DNA of 47,454 bases from Bifidobacterium breve (GTDB lineage: Bacteria > Actinomycetota > Actinomycetes > S36-B12). Shown here one piece after another: positions 5,132 through 26,841 of this stretch. The stretch lies in contig CAMAWO010000002.1 in the NCBI GenBank assembly GCA_945861925.1, forward strand, positions 1 through 47,454, written 5' to 3'. The notes beneath the pieces are model-generated. The model saw only the letters and a list, made by a program, of their open reading frames with translations. It was not told the DNA's origin and ran no database searches. The translations under genes were made by a program, and so were the position numbers. Numbering within the stretch: position 1 is the stretch's first letter; each line of letters opens with the position of its first letter.

Positions 5132-6169
5132 CTAGTGAACTGCCTGCTTGACTTCGGAGATGCGCGCCTCAAGCTCGGCGGCAAGTCGCTGGGCGGATAT
5201 CCGTCTCGCCTTGGCCACGCCGGCATCTTGGGCGATCAGCACATCGTGCTCGTTGGCTGGCCTGCCTCGAAGGCCAATCTCCTGCCACTCGAGGGCGTCG
5301 GCATCCTCCTGCAGGACGGTCTTCAGGCCCTCAATCAGCTCGTCGGTCGCCCACTGCTGGTCCACCCCAAAGTTGCGTGAAAATGCATAGAAATACCAAC
5401 TGTTTTCAGCATCAATCGGCGTGATGCCGTTGAGGACCTTGATCAGGAAGCCCTCTTCTCTCGGGCGGCCTTCGCCAGTGATGCCCGAGTGAAGAATGTG
5501 GAAGCTCGGAATATGGAACTCCGTGCAGTGGAATCGGTCGTACAGGCCTTCGGTCGCCATGGTGCTCGCATACAGCGGTGGCGCAGCCACGCTCGGCATC
5601 AGCCTGTCGACGCTCACGACCTGCCCATCGACCTCGACGGTCACGCCGTGCTTGTAGATGTAATCATCGCCAACGGTGGACGTATGGATGAATGACTCGT
5701 GAGTAAGATCCAGCAGATTGTCATGGATGAGGTCCGCGCGGCACTTGAAATGGAAGCTGTGCGTCACGGTGGCCCACGCTGGATCATTCATCCAGTGGGT
5801 GTCGGGCACCATGCCCACGTCGGCCAGATCCCGGTCGCCCGTCCAGATCCAGATCCATCCATCCTTTTCGACCACGGGAAATGACCGCACCCGGGCGCGC
5901 TCGGGAATCGATTCCTGGGCCGGCACCCGCACGCACGCACCCTCGCAGTCGAAGGTGAAGCCGTGGTACCCGCACTCAATCGAATCGTCGACGACACGTC
6001 CGGCCGAGAGGGGAAACGCACGATGCGCACAGCGATCCTCGAGAGCCACTGCACCACCGTCGCGTTTGCGATAAAGCACTACCGGGATCTCGCAGATCAC
6101 CCTGCGGATCGGCTCGCGAATCACCTCTGTTGTCCAGGCCGCGACGTACCACGTGTTGAGGATGTACAT
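5132..6169 (-). CDS. Rieske oxygenase alpha subunit, VanA/demethylase-like
   Basis: Rieske motif CAHRAFPLSAGRVVDDSIECGYH and iron motif DNLLDLTHESFIH. Start at ATG 6169 (MYILNTWYVAAW), with GGAGG 4 nt upstream. The upstream in-frame extension to 6430 overlaps the divergent regulator region. Confidence 0.8.
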   Translation of the reverse strand: MYILNTWYVAAWTTEVIREPIRRVICEIPVVLYRKRDGGAVALEDRCAHRAFPLSAGRVVDDSIECGYHGFTFDCEGACVRVPAQESIPERARVRSFPVVEKDGWIWIWTGDRDLADVGMVPDTHWMNDPAWATVTHSFHFKCRADLIHDNLLDLTHESFIHTSTVGDDYIYKHGVTVEVDGQVVSVDRLMPSVAAPPLYASTMATEGLYDRFHCTEFHIPSFHILHSGITGEGRPREEGFLIKVLNGITPIDAENSWYFYAFSRNFGVDQQWATDELIEGLKTVLQEDADALEWQEIGLRGRPANEHDVLIAQDAGVAKARRISAQRLAAELEARISEVKQAVH

Positions 6170-6180
6170 GTCGCCTCCGG

Positions 6181-6207
6181 GATACATTGGATACATTGGA
6201 TACATTC
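6181..6207. repeat. 3 x 9-bp tandem direct repeat (GATACATTG, GATACATTG, GATACATTC) in a divergent promoter region
   Basis: Read directly from the sequence. On the minus strand it reads ATGTATCC(A/C) x3, immediately 5' of the GGAGG and ATG of the Rieske gene. Confidence 0.9.
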
Positions 6208-6295
6208 TGAAACCTAACAGCAGTCGATGCCCTTGCGAGGCACTATCGCAACATTGGTAAACAGAACATCGTTGAGAAGGAGCAGGATCGTGACC

Positions 6296-6982
6296 ATGTC
6301 GTTCGCCCGTCCGGCCGGCGGCCTCGCAAAGACTGCGCAAGACCCCCGCCCCCTCGCCGTCCGCGTGTACGAGAGCGTCCGCGACAGCATCGTGACCGGC
6401 CAGATCGAACCGAACACCCAATTGGTGCAAGAGCAGGTTGCGGAGGCCCTTGGCGTCTCACGCACGCCGGTGCGCGACGCGCTCCTCCGACTTGCCCACG
6501 AGGGTCTCGTTACTCGGATCTCCGGTGGCGGATACCTTGTGAACGACCTCGCCGAGCAGGACATCCACGACATTTTCGAGGTCAGGCAAAGCCTCGAGTC
6601 ACTCGCCGTTCGGCTCTCCTTCGGCCGCCACACTCCCGGTCAACTGACGCTCCTGCGCGCACTGGTCGACGAGATGGCCGAGCGGGCCGCCGATCCTGAT
6701 GCCCCCTGGTTCGAACTCAACCGAGACTTCCATGTGGCCTTAATCGCCCCGTGCGGGAATCAGGCGCTCATCTCGATGCTCGGTGAACTTTGGAACAAGC
6801 CGGTCAATCGCCTCATCACCCGGCAGTACGTGAGCGACCCCGGGCACATCCACCGCATGGTGGGCGAGCATCGAGCCTTGGTCGAAGCAGCCGCCTCAAC
6901 AGATGCCGACATCATGAACGCCCTGGCCCTCGAGCACCTGCAGCTGGGCTACGGCGAAATCTCCATTGAACGGCAACGCTAA
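6296..6982 (+). CDS. GntR-family transcriptional regulator (FadR/FCD-type C-terminal domain)
   Basis: Winged-HTH region QLVQEQVAEALGVSRTPVRDALLRLAHEGLV followed by a helical C-terminal domain. Divergent from the Rieske/ABC operon. An in-frame GTG at 6290, after GAAGGAG, is an alternative start. Confidence 0.85.
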   Translation: MSFARPAGGLAKTAQDPRPLAVRVYESVRDSIVTGQIEPNTQLVQEQVAEALGVSRTPVRDALLRLAHEGLVTRISGGGYLVNDLAEQDIHDIFEVRQSLESLAVRLSFGRHTPGQLTLLRALVDEMAERAADPDAPWFELNRDFHVALIAPCGNQALISMLGELWNKPVNRLITRQYVSDPGHIHRMVGEHRALVEAAASTDADIMNALALEHLQLGYGEISIERQR

Positions 6983-8230: not shown

Positions 8231-9744
8231 CGCTCTGGTTTCACGAGCGGGAACAGGATGGTCTCGCGGATGCCGAGCCCAGTGAGCGTCATGAGAAGCC
8301 GGTCGATGCCGATGCCCACGCCTCCTGACGGCGGCATGCCGTATTCCAGTGCTCGCAGGAAGTCCTCGTCGAGGCGCATCGCTTCGGCATCGCCCCCTGC
8401 GCCGAGCGCGGCCTGCTCCACGAGCCGCTGGCGCTGGATGACGGGGTCGACGAGCTCGGAGTAGCCGGTGGCCTGCTCATAGCCGTTGACGTACAGGTCC
8501 CATTTCTCCACCTTGCCGGCATCCGTGCGGTGGTCGCGCACGAGCGGCGAGGTATCGACCGGGAAGTCCATGACAAAGACTGGTCGACCCTCGAAGGAGT
8601 CGATAACGTGATGCTCGAACAGCCCCTCCACGAGCTTGCCGGCAATCGCCGACGACTGCACCTCGATCCCCGCCTTCGAGCAGAGGGCGAGCAGTTCCTC
8701 CCGACTCGTCATCGGGGTGATCTCGACCCCGACGGCGTCCGAGGTCGACCCATAGAGCGAGATCTCCGGCCACACCCCCGAGAGGTCGTGGACCGAGCCG
8801 TCCGCGTGCACCACCTCGAGGGTGCCAACGGCCGCCAGGGCTGCCTCTTGGATGAGCTCACGGGTGAGCGCCGCTACGTCGCGATAGTCGGCGTAGGCCT
8901 GATAAAACTCGAGCATCGCAAACTCTGGTGAATGGGTGGAGTCGGCGCCCTCATTACGGAAGTTTCGGTTGATCTCGAAGACCCGCTCGATTCCGCCGAC
9001 GACTGCTCGCTTCAAGAACAGCTCCGGTGCAATCCGAAGAAAGAGCTCGAGGTCAAAGGCGTTGGACGTTGTCACGAACGGACGGGCCGTGGCACCGCCG
9101 TGCATCGTCTGGAGCATCGGGGTCTCGATCTCGAGGAACCCCCGGGAATCGAGGCTGCGGCGCAGGGCTGCCACCGCCGCCACGCGAGTGCGCGCCATCT
9201 GGCGGGCCTCCGGCCGCATGATGAGGTCGACGTAGCGCTGGCGGACCCGGGTGTCCTCGCTCAGGGGCTTATGGGAGACCGGTAGCGGACGCAGTGCCTT
9301 CGCGGCCATCGACCACGTGTCGGCGAGCACCGAGAGTTCGCCCCGTTTTGAGGTGATGACCTCACCGTGGACGAACACATGATCGCCGATATCTACCAGC
9401 GCTTTCCAAGAATCAAGCTGCTCCTCGCCGACATTTGCCAGCGACAGCATCGCCTGGAGTTCGACGCCCTCGCCGGAACGAAGGGTGGCGAAGCAGAGCT
9501 TGCCGGTATTGCGGACGAACATAACTCGCCCAGCGACACCCACCTTCTCACCGGTCGCCCCATCGGGTTCGAGATCAGGGTACGCCGCGCGAACACCGGC
9601 AATGGTCGAGGTGATCGGTACCTGGACCGGGTACGGATCTATACCCGCTTCGGTGAGGCGCTCGCGCTTATCGCGCCGGATCCGCATCTGCTCGGGAAGG
9701 TCTTCCTCCGGCTCGACGACAACCTCTGCCTGCTCAGTGCTCAC
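8227..9744 (-). CDS. lysS: lysine--tRNA ligase (class II)
   Basis: 505 aa with an OB-fold N-terminal part and class II core motifs including [23 protein letters not shown] and [13 protein letters not shown] start. Confidence 0.95.
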
Positions 9745-9906
9745 GAAGCACAGGGTATGCGATCGATGGAAGACCCCTCCTCACTCACGACGTGAGGGGT
9801 CTCGTGGGACAGGACCTTCGGCCATGGAGTCCCTACGAAGGTCACTATCTGACGCCCTGCGATCTACGCGACAGTGCACTCACCAAACCTAATGAGGAGA
9901 AAAACC

Positions 9907-10371
9907 ATGGCATCACAAGGAAAATCCCCCGCTGCATCCTGGATCTCCATCGTGCTGATCGTCGTGGGGGCAGTCTTGGCCATTACGGGCACCGTCAGCT
10001 ACGTAATGGTCGGCTCAACCCTCGCTGATGAGCGCATCACTGTCTCGGAGGATGCCTGCCTCGGCGGCAACACCGTGAGCGGACCCTTCCAGGCCTACTG
10101 CGAGGCCATGATCATCGAGGTCCATGCGACCGAGGCGACCGGCGGCAAGACCTACGCAGAGCTCGATCGTGAGGATCCGCTTCGCCAGACGGCGATGACC
10201 GGCTCCTTCCTTCGCGCCTCACTGTTCACCTCCGTGGTCGCCTTCGGGGTCTCGGCCCTCGTTGTCGGACTCGGCGCCCTGTTCATCCTCACCGGCTTCG
10301 GCCTGCGCAGTCTCACCGATCGCAAGGAGGACGCCACGCAGGCCCCGGCTCCGCCCGCAGCAACCGCCTAG
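9907..10371 (+). CDS. small membrane protein (2 TM), unknown function
   Basis: ATG 9907 preceded by GAGGAGA. Hydrophobic segments WISIVLIVVGAVLAITG and VVAFGVSALVVGLGALFILTGFG. Confidence 0.6.
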   Translation: MASQGKSPAASWISIVLIVVGAVLAITGTVSYVMVGSTLADERITVSEDACLGGNTVSGPFQAYCEAMIIEVHATEATGGKTYAELDREDPLRQTAMTGSFLRASLFTSVVAFGVSALVVGLGALFILTGFGLRSLTDRKEDATQAPAPPAATA

Positions 10372-10401
10372 TTGGTCTGTGGGCCGCACTACGCTCCCTC
10401 C

Positions 10402-11091
10402 ATGAGTCGCGCGGCCCACATTTGCATCCCACCCGTCAAGGGCGTCATCTTCGATATTCACTCAACCCTCATCGATCAGGGAAGCGCGAGCCATTGGCTC
10501 GATGCCGCACTTCTCAGGTCTCCGACCCCGCTTGCGGCCGATGAGCGCGCAGCACTCGGGTCCTTCCTCGACCTCATCTGGGAGGGCGCACGGATCAGCG
10601 ATCCGGAGAGCACACGAGACCTATCCTTCGCCGCCCATGAACGAGTGTTCCACGAACTCCTCGCTGCCGGCCCCGGCATCGACCCGGCGCTCGGTGCGGC
10701 CCTCTACGAGGTCATGCTCGACGTGTGGCACGCATATGAGGACACGGTGCCCACCTTGGAGGCCCTACAGGAGATGGGGGTCACGGTGTGCCTGCTGTCC
10801 AATGCCGGGGTCCCGATCCGGACGGTGCTCGATCGCGAGGGCCTCACACCGCTCATCAATGGAGTCGTCCTGTCATGCGAAGTGGGCCTGGTGAAGCCGG
10901 ATATTCGAATCTTCCAAACGGCCCTTGACGCAATCGCCTGCCCTGCAAACGAAGCGCTCATGGTTGGCGACAGCGGTCGCGATGACAGCGGGGGCACCGC
11001 GCTCGGCATCCGCACGCTCATCCTGCCGAGAACCAGCGGGCCAGTTCACGGACTGGGCGCTGTTGTGTCACTCGTGCGCCCCTGCCACTAG
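10402..11091 (+). CDS. HAD-superfamily hydrolase
   Basis: Motif I variant VIFDIHSTL (DxHxT rather than DxDxT), motif II LLSNAG, motif III K in GLVKPD, motif IV VGDSGRDD. Start at ATG 10402; the TTG at 10372 is an alternative. Confidence 0.75.
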   Translation: MSRAAHICIPPVKGVIFDIHSTLIDQGSASHWLDAALLRSPTPLAADERAALGSFLDLIWEGARISDPESTRDLSFAAHERVFHELLAAGPGIDPALGAALYEVMLDVWHAYEDTVPTLEALQEMGVTVCLLSNAGVPIRTVLDREGLTPLINGVVLSCEVGLVKPDIRIFQTALDAIACPANEALMVGDSGRDDSGGTALGIRTLILPRTSGPVHGLGAVVSLVRPCH

Positions 11092-11114
11092 GGCGTGTCT
11101 CCAATGTTGAGCGG

Positions 11115-11625
11115 GTGTCAGGCTTGATCACGAAGATTGCTCACGTATCCGCTGTTCTTTCTGAGGAGATGTGGGCTCCTATTGAGCCGTCGCTGCCACC
11201 GCTGAAAGGAGCGATGGGCAGGCCGATGCGGTCTCATCGCACGCTGATTGAGGGGCCGATCTAGCGTCTTCGAACGGCGAGATCGACTGGAACGTGTCGG
11301 TCGACTCCACGATCACCCGTGTTCACCAGCATGGGGCAACTGCTGCGACGTCTGACGTGAAGGTCACCCGCACACATCTCCCCGCAAGCTTTCGAGAGCA
11401 ACGCTTCTGCGCTTCTTCGTCGCTTCCTAGTGAACAAACAGGGCCTCTTCGGCGTTCCAGGCCGTGGCAGCACGAGCCGGCTGTACAGCGACGACCCTGC
11501 CGCCCAGTCTCAGGATCAGACGCGAGTCCGGCCATCCAGATCACTGTCCGAAACCCAAACTCTCCCCTGGCCCGGTACCAAAAAATCCACTTCATGAAAG
11601 GCTCCGACCAAAGAAACACGTGAAC
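11115..11625 (+). mobile_element. degraded IS5-family (IS427-like) transposase gene remnant
   Basis: Own translation: ...LSEEMWAPIEPSLPPLKGAMGRPMRSHRTLIEGPI*RLRTA, with an in-frame TAG at 11262-11264. It then jumps to a second frame, SVDSTITRVHQHGATAA (ORF 11294-11623). Both resemble conserved IS5/IS427 transposase blocks (LtdeqW..ieplLP..GRP and iDSTivRAHQHAAGA, recalled from memory). The roughly 80 aa normally between them are missing. No terminal inverted repeats were identified. Confidence 0.55.
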
Positions 11626-12029: not shown

Positions 12030-12509
12030 ATGCCGCGCCTACCAGCCGTTTCGCGCATCGAAGCTGAGCCTGCTGTCAACGCCGAGATCGTCGGGATGCT
12101 GGCCTTGCTCGAGTCCGACTCGAGGGTGCGTCTGGTCAGCGACGACGGAAGCGAGCGTGTCCTCCCACCGCAGATGAAGGTGATTCTCCGCCGAGCAGGC
12201 GAGATCATGGGTCAGGGCCACGACGTCGATGTGCTCGACGCCAGCAGTGAAACGCTCACCCCGAACGAGGCGGCAGACCTCATCGGAATCAGCAGGCCCA
12301 CCCTTCTCAAACTCATCGATGAGGGAGTGCTCACGGCGACCAATGTTCCTGGGAGCTCGCATCGCCGTCTCGACCGCCTTGAGGTTGAGGCTTTCCGGGA
12401 CAGCCGCCTCGAGATGCAGTCCGGGCTCAACGCCGCCGCGGCCGAGGCGCGCGCGACTGGGCTCTTCACTCGTTTACCTCGGAAAGCCCGGGCGCGGAAC
12501 GCTCGGTAG
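12030..12509 (+). CDS. helix-turn-helix (excisionase/MerR-like HTH_17) DNA-binding protein, putative antitoxin
   Basis: LTPNEAADLIGISRPTLLKLIDEGVLTA...HRRLDRLEVEAF is a typical excisionase-type HTH. AAGGAGG RBS. The stop TAG overlaps the GTG of the downstream PIN gene (TAGTG). Confidence 0.7.
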   Translation: MPRLPAVSRIEAEPAVNAEIVGMLALLESDSRVRLVSDDGSERVLPPQMKVILRRAGEIMGQGHDVDVLDASSETLTPNEAADLIGISRPTLLKLIDEGVLTATNVPGSSHRRLDRLEVEAFRDSRLEMQSGLNAAAAEARATGLFTRLPRKARARNAR

Positions 12510-13174
12510 TGAGCCGCCGGGTCGTCGTCTACGCCGACACGAACGTCCTGTACCCGTACTACATCTCCGACCTGCTGCTGTGGTTGGCGTCAGACGGGGT
12601 CATACGGCTCGTATGGACGCAGTACCTCGTCGACGAGGTCATTGACGTCGTTCCACGGAGGCGACTGACCCGCGACGTTGGGCGAGACGAGAGGTCCGTG
12701 CACAGCCAGTGGGACGCGGCTCGCGCGCACCTCAAGCGCGACGAGGTGAGCGAGGCTCAATGGCGGACGAAGATGAGCCTCACCACTGGACCGGATGCCG
12801 ACGACCACCCTCACCAGGCTGCGGCCATCTACGCGCAGGCCGACTACCTCCTGACTCACGACAGCAGGGGATTCCCTGTTGGTCCCCTGCGCGAACAGGG
12901 TGTCACCGTCACGAGTGTTGATGACTTTCTCTGCGGCATCTTGGCCGAGCAGCGGGATGACGTCCTAGACACCGTGCAGAATCGGGCCAGAAGCCTGAAG
13001 CATCCACCGATGACTCTCGAACGTTACCTAGAGACTCTCACGCTGCCAGCCCCTCGGTTCGCCGAACTCGCTGCCAGAGCATCGGACACTCACCTGTCCC
13101 GGCTCGCTCGACTACGCGCGCGTCTGCGCAGGAAGTCCTATTTGCGGAGATCCGCCATCAAGCGCCAGCCCTGA
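12509..13174 (+). CDS. PIN-domain protein (PIN_3-like), putative toxin with a long basic C-terminal extension
   Basis: VVVYADTNVLYP (first acidic residue), VDEV, and PDADDHPHQAAAIYAQADYLLTHDSRGF match the PIN_3 layout. 221 aa, with tail LRARLRRKSYLRRSAIKRQP. Confidence 0.7.
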   Translation: MSRRVVVYADTNVLYPYYISDLLLWLASDGVIRLVWTQYLVDEVIDVVPRRRLTRDVGRDERSVHSQWDAARAHLKRDEVSEAQWRTKMSLTTGPDADDHPHQAAAIYAQADYLLTHDSRGFPVGPLREQGVTVTSVDDFLCGILAEQRDDVLDTVQNRARSLKHPPMTLERYLETLTLPAPRFAELAARASDTHLSRLARLRARLRRKSYLRRSAIKRQP

Positions 13175-16593: not shown

Positions 16594-17441
16594 GGGCCCG
16601 CCACCGTGCAGGCCATGTTGTCGAGGAGCCGGGTCACACCCACGCGAACAGCGACGAGGGCTCGGCCGGCTCCCGGACGTGCCGCGCCTAGGGCCGGATC
16701 AGTGACGACAAGGTAGTCGACCTCAAGTCCTGGGCTCGCTGACAACAGTTCGAGTCCTGCTCGCACCCCGGCGTCCGCACCCTCGTCCTTAGATACGCGG
16801 ATAGTCTCCTCGAGAGCCCGAGGGACCACTGCCGCGAGGGATCGCTCCTTCGCGCTCAGATAGCGATTTCTGCTGCTCATTGCCAGCCCATCGGGCTCGC
16901 GCACCGTCGGGACTGGCACGACCTTCGTCGGGAAGTTCAACTGACACACCATTTCCGTGATGAGGATGAGCTGCTGGTAGTCCTTCTCCCCGAAGAGCGC
17001 GAGGTCCGGTGCGGTCAGGTGCAGGAGTTTCGCCACCACCGTAAGCATGCCCCTGAAGTGGCCGGGACGCGCGGCGCCCTCGAGAATCTCGCCCAAGGGT
17101 CCAGGATCGACAGTGATCGACGCGCTAATCAAACCCTCTCCGTAGACCTCGCCCACTGTTGGCGCGTAGACGAGATCCGCACCTGCAGCGCCCGAAATAC
17201 TCACGTCCGATTCGAGGGAACGTGGATAACGCTCGAAATCCTCACCTGCACCGAACTGCATCGGGTTGACGAAGTCGGTGACGATGACGCAGCCGCCAGC
17301 GCCGACCGCTGCGCGAGCCTCCCGCACGAGGACCGCGTGCCCCTCGTGAAGGGCGCCCATCGTCATCACGACGGCGGTCGACACCCCCGGGGAGTGCGCT
17401 GCCATGAGGGCTCCGTGGGACTCCACGAGCACGGCACTCAT
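16590..17441 (-). CDS. panC: pantoate--beta-alanine ligase
   Basis: MGALHEGH (HxGH) motif, FVNPMQF, and MSSRNRYL near the C-terminus. Confidence 0.92.
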   Translation of the reverse strand: MSAVLVESHGALMAAHSPGVSTAVVMTMGALHEGHAVLVREARAAVGAGGCVIVTDFVNPMQFGAGEDFERYPRSLESDVSISGAAGADLVYAPTVGEVYGEGLISASITVDPGPLGEILEGAARPGHFRGMLTVVAKLLHLTAPDLALFGEKDYQQLILITEMVCQLNFPTKVVPVPTVREPDGLAMSSRNRYLSAKERSLAAVVPRALEETIRVSKDEGADAGVRAGLELLSASPGLEVDYLVVTDPALGAARPGAGRALVAVRVGVTRLLDNMACTVAGP

Positions 17442-18328
17442 CGGCCCCTCCCCTCGCCGAGGACCTCGAGCAGGGCCTCGGCATCGCGCACCTTCAGCAG
17501 ACCGGCACCGACGGCGCGGTCAGCGGTAAGGCGCCCGAGCGCTCTGTAGGCGCTCGCAGCCTCCGACGACACCTCCTCGATCGCCCGAACATGATCTGCG
17601 ACCGACGCGGCATCACCACGCGCCACCGGGCCGGTCAGCGCCTGATCCCCCAACCTGAGTGCATTGTCGAGTGATGCGCTGAGGAGGGGCGCCACGAGAC
17701 GCTGCGGGTCTTCGAGCCCCGCGCGACGGAGCAGGTCTAGGCACTGGGCCACGAGCGTGATGAGGTAGTTGGAGCCGTATGCGAGGGCAGCGTGATAGGT
17801 CGACCGCTGCTCCTCCGGGACCCAGAACGGATCCCCGCCCATCTCGACCACGAGGGCCTCAGCCACCGGACGCAGCACCTCCGGGGCCGTCACCCCGAAG
17901 GGGCAGTCACTGAGCCTGCTCAAGTCCAGGCTCGTGCCGGTAAAGGTCATGACCGGATGAAGAGCAAGGGGCAGTGCGCCCATTCGCGTGGCCGGTTCGA
18001 GCACCTCGATGCCGAACCGCCCTGCCGGGTGACACCAGAACTGCCCCGGATGCACGTTGCCCGTCTCTGCGAGGCCCGCGATGAGGCCGGTCAGCGCATC
18101 GTCTGGAACGGCGACGAGCACGAGATCGACTCCGAGCACCACAGCAGGAAGATCGAGGAACGGCACACCGGGCAGCAGCGCCTCGGCACGAAGTCGCGAG
18201 ACATCCGACACTGCCGTGACCGCCACGAGTTCTTGACCGGCGCGGCGCAGGGCCGCGCCGAGGACCGCACCGACGCGTCCGGTGCCGATGACACCGACGC
18301 GCAGTCTCGGCGGGCCCAGATCGCTCAC
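17438..18328 (-). CDS. Rossmann-fold oxidoreductase-like protein with a DUF2520-type C-terminal domain
   Basis: N-terminal VGVIGTGRVGAVLGAAL dinucleotide fold. Position directly upstream of panC, as in other actinobacteria (recalled synteny). Confidence 0.7.
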   Translation of the reverse strand: MSDLGPPRLRVGVIGTGRVGAVLGAALRRAGQELVAVTAVSDVSRLRAEALLPGVPFLDLPAVVLGVDLVLVAVPDDALTGLIAGLAETGNVHPGQFWCHPAGRFGIEVLEPATRMGALPLALHPVMTFTGTSLDLSRLSDCPFGVTAPEVLRPVAEALVVEMGGDPFWVPEEQRSTYHAALAYGSNYLITLVAQCLDLLRRAGLEDPQRLVAPLLSASLDNALRLGDQALTGPVARGDAASVADHVRAIEEVSSEAASAYRALGRLTADRAVGAGLLKVRDAEALLEVLGEGRGR

Positions 18329-18362
18329 AGGTGGAGCCTAGAGCCCGGTAGCGTCAGCGGTC

Positions 18363-19235
18363 GTGCCGGATGAACTCACCCTCACAGATGCTTGGGAGGA
18401 GACTCTTATCGGGGATCGCTCGTTCTACCGTGGACCCGACGGCGACCCCTACCGGCACTTCGCAACCGACATAGCAGGCAGCGCCGAGATCCTTCCCCTC
18501 ATTCGTGAACTCCTTGCCTTCGCAGGCGATTGCGACGGTGGCCCGCTCACGGTCATTGATGTCGGGTCGGGCGCTGGAGGCCTTTTGGCCAGACTTGCGA
18601 TGACAGGCACCAACACACGACTCATTGGGATCGACCTTCGACCCCGACCCGCAGGGCTCGACACCGCCATCGAATGGATCACCGGAGACGCCCGGGTGGT
18701 CGCCGGCGAGATCCTTGGGATTCGAGGCGTGGTCGTTGCCCACGAGTTCCTCGACGACATCCCTTGCGCGGCAGTCGAAGTGGACGAGGACGGACGTCCA
18801 CGGCTGATCCGCGTGGACCCCTCGAGCCGCAGGCTCGTCGTCGGCGAACCGCTCGAGGACCCCGCCGATCTCGCATGGCTTGATCGTTGGTGGCCGGTCA
18901 CCCGGCCGTTTATGCGAGCGGAGATCGGCCGCAGCCGCGACGCGGCATGGGCCATGATCACCGGCATGCTCGACTCAGGCGCCGCCCTCGCAATCGACTA
19001 CGGCCACACCCGCCCCGAGCGGCTGGGCGGCACGTGGGACGGCGGCACCCTCGTCGGCTATCACGAGGGTCGGGTGGTCACCCCGGTTGCTGACGGCTCA
19101 TGCAATCTCACCGCCCACGTTGCGATCGATTCGGTTGCCGAAGCCGCGCCCAGGGCGCAATCGACGCGGATTGACCACTGGTCCTCAGCGCCCGGACGCG
19201 CAGACTTCGTCAGCCTCGTCCAGACCTTCACCTGA
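18363..19235 (+). CDS. MidA/NDUFAF7-family (COG1565, DUF185) SAM-dependent methyltransferase
   Basis: VIDVGSGAGGLLARL SAM motif, VVAHEFLDDIPC, LAIDYGH, GTLVGYH and CNLTAHVAIDS follow the MidA-family block order known from memory. GTG start, 34 bp from the divergent gene. Confidence 0.7.
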   Translation: MPDELTLTDAWEETLIGDRSFYRGPDGDPYRHFATDIAGSAEILPLIRELLAFAGDCDGGPLTVIDVGSGAGGLLARLAMTGTNTRLIGIDLRPRPAGLDTAIEWITGDARVVAGEILGIRGVVVAHEFLDDIPCAAVEVDEDGRPRLIRVDPSSRRLVVGEPLEDPADLAWLDRWWPVTRPFMRAEIGRSRDAAWAMITGMLDSGAALAIDYGHTRPERLGGTWDGGTLVGYHEGRVVTPVADGSCNLTAHVAIDSVAEAAPRAQSTRIDHWSSAPGRADFVSLVQTFT

Positions 19236-19247
19236 CACACTGGCCCA

Positions 19248-20372
19248 GTGACGTCACGCAAAGTCCTCGTCGCGCTCGGGGCAGCCCGTCACCTCGACGC
19301 AGATCTCGTCCTCGATCTCGGCGACCTCCACCCCGCCCAGCACGGCGCACTCCAACTGGCCCTAGAGCTCGATGACGACATCATCACCGCGGCCGATGCC
19401 CGGGTAGGCCTCCTGCATCGCAGCGCGGAAAAGCTCTTCGAGGCCCGCGACTATCGGCAGATCCTCATGCTCGCGAACCGGCACGACTGGCTGTCAGCCT
19501 TCTCCTCAGAACTCGGAGTCGCCCTCACCATCGAAGCGGCGATGGGCATCGTTCCCCCCGAGCGCGCCACCTGGTCGCGCACCCTGCTCGCCGAGGTGAA
19601 CCGCATCACGGCATCACTCCTGCTCGTCGGGGCGGCCGTACCCGAGGCCGCGCCGAGCCTTGCTGTGCGAGAGGAGCTCCAGGAACTCCAGGAGCGGGCG
19701 ACCGGCGGCCGCGTCCACCCGATGATCACTCGAATTGGCGGGCTCGCGCATCCGCTGGATACTCCTTGGCTCGACGATCTCGCGCGAGTGCTCGCAGGGC
19801 TCACCGCTCAACTGCCCACTGTCCGCGAGTCCGTGACTACCGCGATGCAGGCTCACGCAGGAGTCGCCGTGCTCACCACCGCCGATGCACTGTCCATCGG
19901 CGTGAGTGGGCCGGTCGCCCGAGCAAGCGGCGTCGACCTTGACCTACGTCGTGATGCGGCTCTCCTCGCCTACCCGGAACTCGTGTCGCTCATCGACGTT
20001 CCGGTCTCCATCGCCGGCGATATCTCCGCGCGTTACGAGGTCCTTCTCGGCCAGATACCCGTGAGCATTGCCCTCATCGCGGCCGCCAGCGCCCGGCTGC
20101 GCGAGCTCGGCGAGGGGCCGGTGAATGTGCCGCTGCCCAAGGTCGTTCGAGTCCCGGAAAGCACCAGCTACGGCGAGTTCGAGGGCCCGCTCGGACGAAG
20201 CGGCTACCTACTCAGCAGCGTAGGTGAGAAGACGCCGTGGCGGCTGAAACTGCGCACGCCATCATTCACCAACGTTCAGGCGCTTGCGCGAGCATTGCCC
20301 GGCACACCCCTGCATGCGCTCGGACCCGCGGTCACGTCCTTCTTCTTCGTCGTCGGCGACATCGACCGCTGA
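19248..20372 (+). CDS. orphan NADH-quinone oxidoreductase subunit D (NuoD/Nqo4/NDUFS2)-like protein
   Basis: LHPAQHGALQL, VGLLHRSAEKL, NRHDWLSAFSSE, VPPERA, and C-terminal WRLKLRTPSFTNVQAL...VVGDIDR align by eye without gaps to the Nqo4/NuoD N- and C-terminal blocks. No other nuo genes are nearby. Confidence 0.75.
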   Translation: MTSRKVLVALGAARHLDADLVLDLGDLHPAQHGALQLALELDDDIITAADARVGLLHRSAEKLFEARDYRQILMLANRHDWLSAFSSELGVALTIEAAMGIVPPERATWSRTLLAEVNRITASLLLVGAAVPEAAPSLAVREELQELQERATGGRVHPMITRIGGLAHPLDTPWLDDLARVLAGLTAQLPTVRESVTTAMQAHAGVAVLTTADALSIGVSGPVARASGVDLDLRRDAALLAYPELVSLIDVPVSIAGDISARYEVLLGQIPVSIALIAAASARLRELGEGPVNVPLPKVVRVPESTSYGEFEGPLGRSGYLLSSVGEKTPWRLKLRTPSFTNVQALARALPGTPLHALGPAVTSFFFVVGDIDR

Positions 20373-20384
20373 CGAATCGCGCCG

Positions 20385-20681
20385 CTACTTCTCGTGATCG
20401 CGAATGTAGGTCGCGAAGCGAGCCCGCAGGAGCGTCTCGGTCGTGGGATCGAGATCCTTGTCACCGAGCATCTCGCGCACTGCCCTGACCGTCTCGATGA
20501 AGGTGCCGCCAATCGCGCCGAGATCGCCGCCCTCACCCTCAATCGCGACCATGCCGGGCATGTGCGCGAACAGGTCGGTGAAGAAGCCGATATCGATGCG
20601 CCTCTCGGCCAGATGGAAGGCTCGGTGACGCAGCTCGTCGAAGGGCAGGTCCTCAAGGCTCGTTGCATCGCTCATGGTCAC
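20385..20681 (-). CDS. small acidic hypothetical protein (98 aa)
   Basis: ATGA overlap with the upstream DUF3180 gene suggests translational coupling at the end of the folate operon. No recognisable motif. Confidence 0.5.
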   Translation of the reverse strand: MTMSDATSLEDLPFDELRHRAFHLAERRIDIGFFTDLFAHMPGMVAIEGEGGDLGAIGGTFIETVRAVREMLGDKDLDPTTETLLRARFATYIRDHEK

Positions 20682-25698: not shown

Positions 25699-26841
25699 TC
25701 AGGACACTCTGTTGGGCTTGGCCTTGGCGCCGAGCTGGATCAACGTTGAGCTGAACGTGACGGAGGCCTGGCAGGTGATCAGCGAGCCATCGTCCTCAAT
25801 CCTCAGCCGGTACGTCCGCCTTGTCGCACCGGGAATGGGGACACCGTCACGTAGCCAGACCCGCACTGTCGAGGCCACGCTCCATGGAGAGCTGTTTGCG
25901 CTGGCGCAGGTCAGCCTCGAGCCGACCGTCGACCTCCCCTTGACCGACGTTGTCAAGAGTCTGCCTTTTCCGGTTCCTACCTTGGATATCCACGACGTGC
26001 CCTGCTCCGCAAACCACATCGCGCCATCAGTGCCCACCGCAATTCCCGCTGGGACCGCGGCGGTACTCGGAGTCGAGAACTCGGTGACGTCCCCCTTCAT
26101 GGTGATCCGGCCGATCTTCTCCCCCTGGAACTCGGTGAACCACATGGCATCATCAGGACCCGCGGCAATGAGGTAGGGCCCAGCCGCGGCGGTGGGAACC
26201 GAGTATTCGGTGATTGATCCGTCCATGGCGATCCGACCGATAGCGTTGCCCTTCCATTGGGTGAACCACATCGCGCCATCAGGACCAGCCGCGATACCGT
26301 CAGGTTGTCGGCTGTCCTTGGGCATCACAAACTCAGTGACCGTTCCGTTCATCGTGATCCGACCCACCCTGTTGCCGGCAGACTCGGTGAACCACATCGC
26401 CCCATCAGGGCCAAGTGCGATGTCATGCGGGATGGCATTAGCCGTCAGCACCGGGTACTCGGTGATCGTTCCATCCATCGTGATCCGACCGATCTTGTTG
26501 CCGTTCCACTCGGTGAACCACATCGAACCATCCGGTCCCGCCGCGATATCAAAGGGATTGGCGCCTAGCGTGGAAATCGGAAACTGAGCGACCCGACCGT
26601 CCATGGTAATCCGGCCGATGGCATTCCCTTGAAGCTCAGTGATCCACATCGCGCCATCGGGGCCTGCTGCGACCCCCCACGGTCCCGACCCGGCGAAAGG
26701 CGCCGGCTTGTAGGTCTCGAACGAGCCGAGGGGCATTCCCGAAGCAGCCTGTGCACCGGGAGCAGTAAGCACACCCAGCAGGCCCGCAAGAGCCAGAGTC
26801 AAGGCAAGTCGGCTAACCCGGGTGGTCTTCGACCTGCTCAT
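25699..26841 (-). CDS. secreted virginiamycin-B-lyase (Vgb)-like beta-propeller protein with a C-terminal Ig-like domain
   Basis: Signal peptide MSRSKTTRVSRLALTLALAGLLGVLTAPGAQA. About six 42-aa repeats of the form P.GIAAGPDGAMWFTE..GN.IGRITMDG.ITEY, matching the Vgb blade repeat recalled from memory. The C-terminal ~90 aa (GSRLTC...WLRDGVPIPGATRRTYRLRIEDDGSLITC) resemble an actinobacterial Ig-like module. Confidence 0.7.
   Translation of the reverse strand: MSRSKTTRVSRLALTLALAGLLGVLTAPGAQAASGMPLGSFETYKPAPFAGSGPWGVAAGPDGAMWITELQGNAIGRITMDGRVAQFPISTLGANPFDIAAGPDGSMWFTEWNGNKIGRITMDGTITEYPVLTANAIPHDIALGPDGAMWFTESAGNRVGRITMNGTVTEFVMPKDSRQPDGIAAGPDGAMWFTQWKGNAIGRIAMDGSITEYSVPTAAAGPYLIAAGPDDAMWFTEFQGEKIGRITMKGDVTEFSTPSTAAVPAGIAVGTDGAMWFAEQGTSWISKVGTGKGRLLTTSVKGRSTVGSRLTCASANSSPWSVASTVRVWLRDGVPIPGATRRTYRLRIEDDGSLITCQASVTFSSTLIQLGAKAKPNRVS

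Follow-up and report, generated by a model that had tools for sequence, protein, structure and literature searches.

We describe a conserved pair of genes on a 47,454-nucleotide (nt) stretch of metagenome-assembled actinobacterial DNA (contig CAMAWO010000002.1, 64% GC; hereafter the window). The first gene (gene 1; 18,363–19,235, plus strand) encodes a short S-adenosylmethionine (SAM)-dependent methyltransferase of the MidA/NDUFAF7 family (PF02636, COG1565), and the second (gene 2; 19,248–20,372, plus strand) encodes a paralogue of the complex I subunit NuoD/NDUFS2, referred to here as NuoD2, in which a Trp takes the place of the quinone head-group Tyr. Both genes start with GTG and their products are 290 and 374 amino acids (aa) long, respectively. 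The pair is a conserved actinobacterial two-gene module, with a coupling that is often tight yet loose overall. In our preferred reading, which is an inference, the enzyme would methylate Arg58 (R58) of a NuoD paralogue that would not reduce quinone and would dock on a NuoB-type iron-sulphur (Fe-S) subunit; we consider the chances of this reading to be about even. New here is a MidA–NuoD relationship in a new phylum, genomically linked and set on a remodelled paralogue, for which we infer the mechanism.

A remodelled NuoD and a minimal MidA-family enzyme

The product of gene 2 matches the Pfam family Complex1_49kDa (PF00346, E=2.3e-40), and a phmmer search against PDB sequences retrieved NDUFS2/Nqo4 chains at about 1e-43 with an alignment that reaches both termini, as had been proposed by eye in the first-pass annotation of this DNA. 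Its AlphaFold2 model has a predicted local distance difference test (pLDDT) value of 86.3 and template modelling (TM) scores of 0.81–0.86 to NDUFS2/NuoD chains. Judged by sequence and model, the gene 2 product is a NuoD/NDUFS2-fold protein but not an ordinary NuoD: it has the domain, the fold and the residues that face cluster N2, and it lacks the equivalog score, the full set of two quinone ligands and the nuo-operon context. More specifically, it scores under every NCBIfam NuoD equivalog cutoff (best NF004739, 231 bits against 360; TIGR01962, 214 against 459), it carries an internal deletion of about 20 residues before the C-terminal sheet, and in the window protein a loop at residues 128–137 is shortened. 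Third-position GC is 0.78, typical of coding sequence. We rejected a [NiFe]-hydrogenase large subunit or an Fe-S protein as the identity of gene 2, since the protein has zero cysteines and thus no NiFe-binding pairs, and the NCBIfam hydrogenase model matched at only E=0.015.

Residue states were read from 75 MidA-linked family members aligned to E. coli NuoCD. The motif GLLHRSAEKL (residues 54–63; 19,407–19,436, plus strand) contains R58 (codon CGC, 19,419–19,421), the equivalent of the symmetrically dimethylated Arg of NDUFS2 (bovine R85), which aligns with the fly sequence 'LLHRGTEKL' and with E. coli R250; its retention at these nucleotides had been correctly recognised at first pass. Arg occupies this position in 75/75 members and in all Trp-type representatives, and the residue directly after it is Gly in 65 of the 75, Ser in the window protein. 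The family signature RDYRQILMLANRHDWLS (residues 67–83; 19,446–19,496, plus strand) corresponds to a family-specific motif, RDYRQIxxLANRHDWLS, around W81 (codon 19,488–19,490). W81 replaces the quinone head-group Tyr (E. coli Y273, Thermus Y87), and all 75 members have Trp here. The second quinone ligand, a His (E. coli NuoCD H224, Thermus Nqo4 H38), is retained in the window as H32, within HPAQHG (residues 28–33; 19,329–19,346, plus strand), and is His in 71/75 MidA-linked members. The same position is A, T or S in 117/117 relatives of the Propionibacteriales branch and is variable among representatives of clusters at 50% identity (Q, A, T, P, D, N, M or S). H157, within GGRVHPMITRIGG (residues 153–165; 19,704–19,742, plus strand), is the equivalent of the His proximal to cluster N2 (E. 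coli H355, Thermus H169); it is invariant in the 75 members and kept in all but three of the Trp-type representatives covering the site. The partner Asp position (E. coli D325, Thermus D139) is Glu in 61/75 and in the window (E133). From these alignments, strong constraint acts on the side facing NuoB and cluster N2 (HR58xxEKL, RxH157...RxGG) and does not extend to the quinone head-group site. Model confidence is low in just two loops, residues 57–65, with R58, and 156–163, with H157; in complex I these loops pack against the NuoB-type subunit, suggesting that a partner would be necessary to order them.

The extent of the family was assessed by an exhaustive search of 1.84 billion cluster representatives. 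At ranks 1–83, every representative covering the sites combines Arg with Trp; these Arg-plus-Trp representatives stand for at least 114 clusters at 50% identity, and the first canonical NuoD of the Tyr type appears at rank 84, with about 190 bits. By this search NuoD2 is a discrete Trp-type family. The low equivalog score, the Tyr-to-Trp replacement, the deletion, the shortened loop and an existing nuoD2 annotation in Streptomyces had all been missed at first pass.

By sequence, profile and predicted fold, gene 1 is a MidA/NDUFAF7-family methyltransferase, in agreement with the earlier assignment. It matches Methyltransf_28 (PF02636) at E=4e-16, with 59.7 bits against a cutoff of 23.3. As a lone sequence it has only a marginal match in the PDB (1ZKD, E=0.015), and a profile of 16 family relatives retrieves 4F3N (1.8e-14), 1ZKD (3.1e-11) and 5ZTZ, the Dictyostelium MidA (3.5e-4). 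The AlphaFold2 model (pLDDT 89.5; predicted TM score 0.90) returns 4G67, 4F3N and 5ZTZ_A as the top three Foldseek matches, with query-normalised TM scores of 0.75, 0.73 and 0.69, and the next-best methyltransferase in that list reaches only about 0.42. The family hallmarks FxT, DVGxGxG, (A/N)ExLDxxP, DYG(H) and TAHV all align with the PDB chains, and the five sequence blocks on which the assignment was originally based are all present, with key residues that do not vary across the 16 aligned family sequences. SAM-binding motif I, VIDVGSGAGGLL (residues 64–75; 18,552–18,587, plus strand), contains DVGSGAGG with D66, G68 and G72 invariant and aligns with motif I of 4F3N, 1ZKD and 5ZTZ. Three MidA hallmarks follow on the plus strand: AHEFLDDIPC (residues 126–135; 18,738–18,767; A126, E128, L130, D131 and P134 invariant), which aligns with 'NEvLDamP'/'NEyfDvlP' of the COG1565/DUF185 structures; AIDYGH (residues 210–215; 18,990–19,007; D212, Y213 and H215 invariant), which aligns with 'iDYG' of 4F3N, 1ZKD and 5ZTZ; and NLTAHVAID (residues 248–256; 19,104–19,130; T250, H252, V253 and D256 invariant), which aligns with 'diTAHVeF'/'dlTAHVdF'. 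Gene 1 encodes a minimal member of the family, with 290 aa against 374–432 aa in the solved members, and TM scores normalised to target length are only 0.52–0.58. The clade of the window lacks a C-terminal helical segment of about 35 residues that Streptomyces-type relatives keep.

Conservation and arrangement of the pair

In the window, the stop codon of gene 1 and the GTG of gene 2 are separated by a 12-nt spacer (19,236–19,247). For the survey anchored on the methyltransferase, 185,579 species genomes were scanned once with the methyltransferase alignment, giving at least 569 relatives; neighbourhoods were obtained for the best 80 loci of these and for two exact look-ups, 82 loci (L001 onwards) altogether. 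The best 80 loci belong without exception to Actinomycetota and include Streptomyces, Kitasatospora, Nonomuraea, Actinomadura, Herbidospora, Planotetraspora, Janibacter, Pedococcus, Oryzobacter, Nocardioidaceae, Actinoplanes, Nanopelagicales and freshwater metagenome-assembled genomes (MAGs); Microlunatus is also among the taxa with the pair. A NuoD2 gene is found within 10 kb of the methyltransferase gene in 76/82 loci, or in 76 of the 79 with enough flank, and in three of the six loci without NuoD2 the contig ends at or within about 0.8 kb of the methyltransferase gene. The survey, which the first-pass annotation had suggested, thus establishes that the NuoD-like neighbour is conserved and that the adjacency is not unique to one strain. 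Its recurrence in dozens of independent actinobacterial genomes suggests that the arrangement is more than chance.

Arrangements were counted over 77 loci with both genes, the window included. The two genes are directly adjacent on the same strand in 37 loci, 15 of which have a stop/start overlap of 4 or 13 nt according to alignment-guided start calls. They are on the same strand with 0.6–7.8 kb inserted between them in 31 loci and on opposite strands in the remaining nine. At the pair junction, relatives have anything between a 13-nt overlap and a spacing of a few tens of nt; the source gene calls give a 4-nt overlap in Streptomyces (L001) and 4-nt gaps in L002 and L091. The description of the genes as an operonic pair therefore fits the 37 adjacent loci and fails for those with inserts or opposite strands, as well as for the loci described below that have no methyltransferase gene in the sampled flanks. 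The flanking block, nadB–panC–DUF2520 on one side and DUF3180–folK–folB–folP on the other, is conserved across the same loci. Most Streptomyces loci keep the two genes adjacent although about 5 kb of other genes part them from DUF2520–panC and the fol genes are rearranged. The locus L003 (CALPZT020000166.1) has a synteny identical to that of the window, with proteins 71–91% identical; its record carries the label Bifidobacterium breve MAG, and mis-binning or mislabelling of the contig is probable. Of the 77 loci, only a few have a NuoD2 frame that is not intact (matches in L057 and L082 are fragmentary or frame-split). Sequence conservation is higher in NuoD2 than in the neighbouring methyltransferase; in L002, for example, the identities are 59% and 42%.

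Among the genes inserted in the 31 interrupted loci are those for a cytochrome P450, a class-V aminotransferase, an EamA transporter, a bPH_2 protein and an MmyB-like regulator. We considered them as extra members of the module and ruled this out: their identities vary by lineage, and they are treated as unrelated cargo. In genomes of Intrasporangiaceae and Streptosporangiales, a convergent cytochrome P450 gene is found repeatedly between the MidA-like gene, which it directly follows, and nuoD2 (L022, 10,908–12,383; L015, 10,694–11,935; L073, 10,999–12,207; also L016 and L062). Seven of the nine opposite-strand loci are Streptomyces with a local inversion and insertion (L034, L063, L064, L068, L072, L077 and L081). 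In these seven, an in-place inversion of nuoD2 makes it converge on the MidA-like gene, the stop codons lie anywhere from a 36-nt overlap to 76 nt apart, and 2.5–3.7 kb of extra DNA is found upstream of nuoD2.

A second sample was anchored on NuoD2 and comprised 10 loci. The methyltransferase gene is adjacent in four of them (L002, L088, L091 and L093) and three genes away in one (Microlunatus, L086); it was not found in the sampled flanks of the other five (L085, L087, L089, L090 and L092), of which L087 and L090 are short contigs with less than 1 kb upstream of NuoD2. In L085, L087 and L090 it is lsr2 that abuts NuoD2, and in L092, from the freshwater clade of the window, it is DUF2520. In L089, of the Propionibacteriales type, a LacI-family regulator gene (8,994–10,004) occupies the methyltransferase slot and overlaps the start of NuoD2 (10,001–11,119) by 4 nt. 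R58, W81 and H157 are invariant also in the NuoD2 proteins of loci with no methyltransferase nearby. A relation in which loss of the methyltransferase neighbour tracks loss of the His ligand was ruled out, since the paired L088 protein also has Ala there. The linkage is asymmetric: the methyltransferase is almost always near NuoD2, and NuoD2 is often without a methyltransferase nearby. A modifying enzyme and its substrate would be expected to show such asymmetry.

NuoD2 is also an orphan with respect to other complex I genes. Within the 47-kb window, E. coli NuoA–N probes matched gene 2 alone, in line with what was claimed at first pass, and Pfam scans of 25 window open reading frames (ORFs), gene 2 included, placed no ORF besides gene 2 in a nuo family. 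No other nuo gene was found with the same probes within 10 kb in the 82 related loci (about 1.6 Mb), where the probes detected the NuoD-like gene in 77 loci; NuoD is the only actinobacterial nuo gene on which their sensitivity was checked. Pfam-annotated neighbourhoods of related loci similarly contain no nuo gene besides NuoD2. It had been considered that gene 2 might be the only nuoD of a dispersed system; in Streptomyces, nuoD2 is an extra copy beside a complete nuoA–N.

Proposed mechanism and alternatives

NDUFAF7 symmetrically dimethylates Arg85 of NDUFS2, and this is needed for assembly of human complex I (PMC3829151). Mammals, yeasts and Paracoccus denitrificans carry the modification, whereas E. 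coli has the Arg without it (PMC3750175); presence of the modification in P. denitrificans and its absence from E. coli are also reported in PMC11522691. Carroll et al. noted that methylated Arg residues usually precede Gly (PMC3750175). This Arg lies 3.7 Å from cluster N2 and is required for N2 stability, and in Thermus an Arg from the NuoB-type subunit occupies the equivalent space beside N2 (PMC8042128).

On this basis we propose a mechanism of three steps, of which the gene spacing shows the first: the two genes are co-expressed, with translational coupling in many lineages. The methyltransferase would then dimethylate R58 of free NuoD2, as NDUFAF7 does Arg85 of NDUFS2 before assembly. Finally, methylated NuoD2 would dock on a Fe-S subunit of the NuoB type, where it would serve as a D subunit without quinone reduction, either an alternative one or a placeholder, and would stabilise or tune an N2-type cluster; candidate partners are the housekeeping NuoB or, in Streptomyces, NuoB2 of a partial nuo2 set. 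R58 is favoured as the target by three features, namely that its loop is predicted to be flexible in the free protein (low model confidence), that it is invariant, and that Gly mostly follows it. The modification may be an accessory refinement dropped by some lineages, since several lineages lost the enzyme from the locus and kept NuoD2 with R58. A more specific version is in our view possible but doubtful. In it, NuoD2 would be a methylation-dependent pseudo-subunit, unable to reduce quinone, that takes up the NuoB/cluster-N2 site after the linked MidA-like enzyme has dimethylated Arg58; its role there would be that of a chaperone or placeholder during assembly, or else of a D subunit that can be switched to an 'off-state'. 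The first-pass annotation saw the pair as a stand-alone counterpart of a complex I assembly step. Both family assignments held, and the description proved too simple because gene 2 belongs to a discrete Trp-type family that has lost quinone head-group ligands.

Several observations weigh against the proposal that the enzyme methylates R58. Gene 1 is without the C-terminal helical region of canonical MidA and does not have the full-length architecture. The function of prokaryotic MidA was described in 2025 as 'only inferred in silico', and the same paper proposed that Wolbachia MidA, expressed in E. coli, methylates DNA (PMC12455994). The Arg has a structural role anyway, E. coli keeps it unmethylated, and R58 is unchanged where no enzyme is nearby, so conservation of the Arg needs no enzyme. 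The pair is separable, as the interrupted and opposite-strand loci demonstrate, and half of the NuoD2-anchored loci have no methyltransferase gene in the sampled flanks. Finally, co-localisation could partly reflect shared ancestry, the pair being inside a deeply conserved panC...folK block.

The main competing explanation is that the two genes are neighbours by descent only: the MidA-like enzyme would methylate something else (another protein Arg, housekeeping complex I or nucleic acid) and NuoD2 would be independent of it. Because the flanking block is itself conserved across the same loci, synteny alone preserves neighbours; yet the Streptomyces pair mostly stays adjacent with both flanks rearranged, and the 15 loci with stop/start overlap come from distant lineages, Streptomyces and Nanopelagicales-type genomes among them. 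The 31 interruptions, the nine inversions and the persistence of NuoD2 with unchanged R58 in five of the ten NuoD2-anchored loci speak for independence, whereas 76 of the 79 loci anchored on the methyltransferase have NuoD2 nearby, and the one experimentally established substrate residue of the enzyme family is the very residue that is invariant in NuoD2 and missing from canonical mycobacterial NuoD. Weighing both sides, we regard descent alone as an unlikely, though quite conceivable, account. Rather unlikely as well is that NuoD2 is a true catalytic D subunit of a second complex I-like enzyme (Streptomyces nuo2: nuoA2, B2, H2–N2), which would reduce quinone or another acceptor at a remodelled site with the methyltransferase as its assembly factor. 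Streptomyces papers do group nuoD2 with the nuo2 operon, itself without a D gene (PMC3765725, PMC8388888), NuoD2 keeps the N2-facing Arg and His plus a complete fold, and its closest solved relatives are Arg-type NuoD/NDUFS2 chains. The quinone ligands, however, are gone or dispensable family-wide (Trp always; in many members A, T, S, Q or P instead of His), the described nuo2 set is also without nuoC, and in the 82 loci the probes found no further nuo gene within 10 kb of NuoD2. NuoD2 is moreover present in Nanopelagicales-labelled MAGs (L009, L030 and L042), where a second membrane complex seems unlikely. Nanopelagicales genomes are small.

Decay of a duplicated nuoD, with gene 2 as its non-functional remnant, would account for the sub-cutoff equivalog score, the lost catalytic Tyr, the deletion of about 20 residues and the extra shortened loop in the window. 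The conservation data effectively refute it, and we consider it extremely improbable: the frame is intact in nearly all of the 77 loci, at least 114 clusters at 50% identity have a family-specific motif in common and are invariant at many positions, the structure is predicted with confidence, third-position GC is that of coding sequence, and NuoD2 in L002 is more conserved than the methyltransferase beside it.

Complex I assembly in human cells depends on dimethylation of the NDUFS2 Arg, and among bacteria the modification has been confirmed in P. denitrificans only. A conserved and often translationally coupled pair provides independent genomic evidence for the enzyme–substrate relationship outside the mitochondrial lineage, and the mitochondrial assembly step could become testable in bacteria where knockouts and mass spectrometry are routine. 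Trp-type NuoD2 is a previously undescribed family and suggests an unrecognised role for the core complex I fold, as an alternative subunit, a placeholder or an assembly factor, which would give meaning to the unexplained "nuoD2" annotation in Streptomyces. Were the pseudo-subunit version true, Actinomycetota would have a dedicated protein-arginine methylation system outside Proteobacteria and mitochondria, in tractable organisms such as Streptomyces.

Genomic surroundings and comparison with known systems

Pfam scans identify the minus-strand genes around the pair as a standard actinobacterial housekeeping block. The order on the left flank is lysS, coaX, nadC, nadB, panC and DUF2520, then the plus-strand pair; on the right it is a 98-aa ORF, DUF3180, folK, folB, folP, folE, ftsH, hpt, tilS and a zincin peptidase gene, with two more genes beyond, the last being dacB. 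The DUF2520 gene (17,438–18,328, minus strand) is divergent from gene 1 across a 34-bp intergenic region (18,329–18,362, read from sequence), and the 98-aa ORF (20,385–20,681, minus strand) is convergent with gene 2 at a distance of 12 nt. These distances, along with the coordinates and spacing of the pair, are as originally given. A scan of the locus for sigma-70-type promoters and terminators found none, the sigma-70-type consensus being uninformative in actinobacterial DNA of 64% GC.

The 98-aa ORF had no match in Pfam and NCBIfam searches. It seems to be the final gene of the fol/DUF3180 operon, and its protein is 74–91% identical across freshwater relatives, exceeding the conservation of its neighbours. 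It was ruled out as a conserved third partner, being unrelated to the membrane-anchored coiled-coil protein in the equivalent slot of Propionibacteriales and Streptomyces. The DUF2520/Rossmann-like gene, directly upstream of panC, has weak sub-threshold matches to 2-dehydropantoate 2-reductase models (NCBIfam E=8e-4) and may be the ketopantoate reductase of the pantothenate cluster. Elsewhere in the window, an HTH_17 gene directly followed by a PIN_3-domain gene (12,030–13,174, plus strand) forms a toxin-antitoxin-like pair; this insertion, in the opposite orientation, separates coaX from a HAD hydrolase gene. A Vgb_lyase-family gene (virginiamycin B lyase-like, beta-propeller; 25,699–26,841, minus strand) lies between ftsH and hpt, which are adjacent, without it, in the related locus L002. 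At the left end, two Rieske/VanA_C-type oxygenase genes (1,840–2,991 and 5,132–6,430, minus strand) stand either side of an AstE/AspA-like gene and adjoin components of an ATP-binding cassette transporter.

We found no published description of the methyltransferase/NuoD2 pair in literature searches that did not reach a 2018 Cell Reports paper on MidA. The first-pass annotation had known of no characterisation of the pair in bacteria; this stands for the pair, and not for the gene 2 family, which already carries the name nuoD2 in Streptomyces. There, nuoD2 is listed as one stray member of a second partial nuo set (A2, B2, H2–N2) beside a complete nuoA–N, and descriptions of the nuo2 set include neither a further D gene nor nuoC (PMC3765725, PMC8388888). 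These genes belong to the same family as gene 2: the 380–390-aa orthologues (L001 and many others) are 46–49% identical to the window protein and stand beside a Methyltransf_28 gene. The same papers make no mention of a methyltransferase neighbour, of altered residues (Tyr-to-Trp) or of a spread beyond Streptomyces (PMC3765725, PMC8388888).

The closest enzymes of known structure to gene 1 are the COG1565/DUF185 proteins 4F3N/4G67 (Burkholderia thailandensis) and 1ZKD (Rhodopseudomonas palustris), which are its best profile and fold matches and have all hallmarks in common with it. They come from Proteobacteria, have 374–432 residues with an extra C-terminal domain and are of unknown substrate; the gene 1 protein is shorter and actinobacterial. 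The closest functional parallel is NDUFAF7 (MidA) with NDUFS2. Gene 1 belongs to the same enzyme family (PF02636, fold match to 5ZTZ), gene 2 to the same protein family and fold, and the Arg of HRGxEKL is kept. In contrast to the mitochondrial system, the two genes are here physically linked in a bacterial genome. Unlike NDUFS2, NuoD2 is an extra paralogue rather than the housekeeping subunit, with Trp for the quinone Tyr and the His ligand often gone. Compared with NDUFAF7/MidA, the gene 1 enzyme is about 100–140 residues shorter, is without the C-terminal helical region and has a predicted activity.

MidA has been described as alpha-proteobacterial in origin, and dimethylation of this Arg is known from a single bacterial case, complex I of Paracoccus denitrificans. 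There, dimethyl-Arg65 of Nqo4 is presumed to be the work of a MidA homologue, on bioinformatic and structural evidence only (PMC9006661). The Paracoccus target is a single catalytic NuoD inside a nuo operon, and here it would be an orphan paralogue. Genomic linkage of midA and nuoD is not described for Paracoccus in the literature that we found, whereas the present pair is linked, and in Actinomycetota.

Within the same phylum, the canonical NuoD of M. smegmatis (PDB 8E9G chain D) has the same fold as NuoD2 (TM about 0.82). Its sequence, 'GYLHTGIEK...RMDYL', has Thr in place of the methyl-Arg and retains the quinone Tyr, and the chain is 442 aa long with an N-terminal extension; Thermus Nqo4, 'GYLHTGFEK...RMDYL', likewise has Thr at the methyl-Arg position and keeps the Tyr. 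With Thr at this position, M. smegmatis NuoD offers no Arg to methylate. NuoD2 is the reverse, a contrast drawn for mycobacteria only: it combines Arg with Trp, is shorter, and lies outside a nuo operon.

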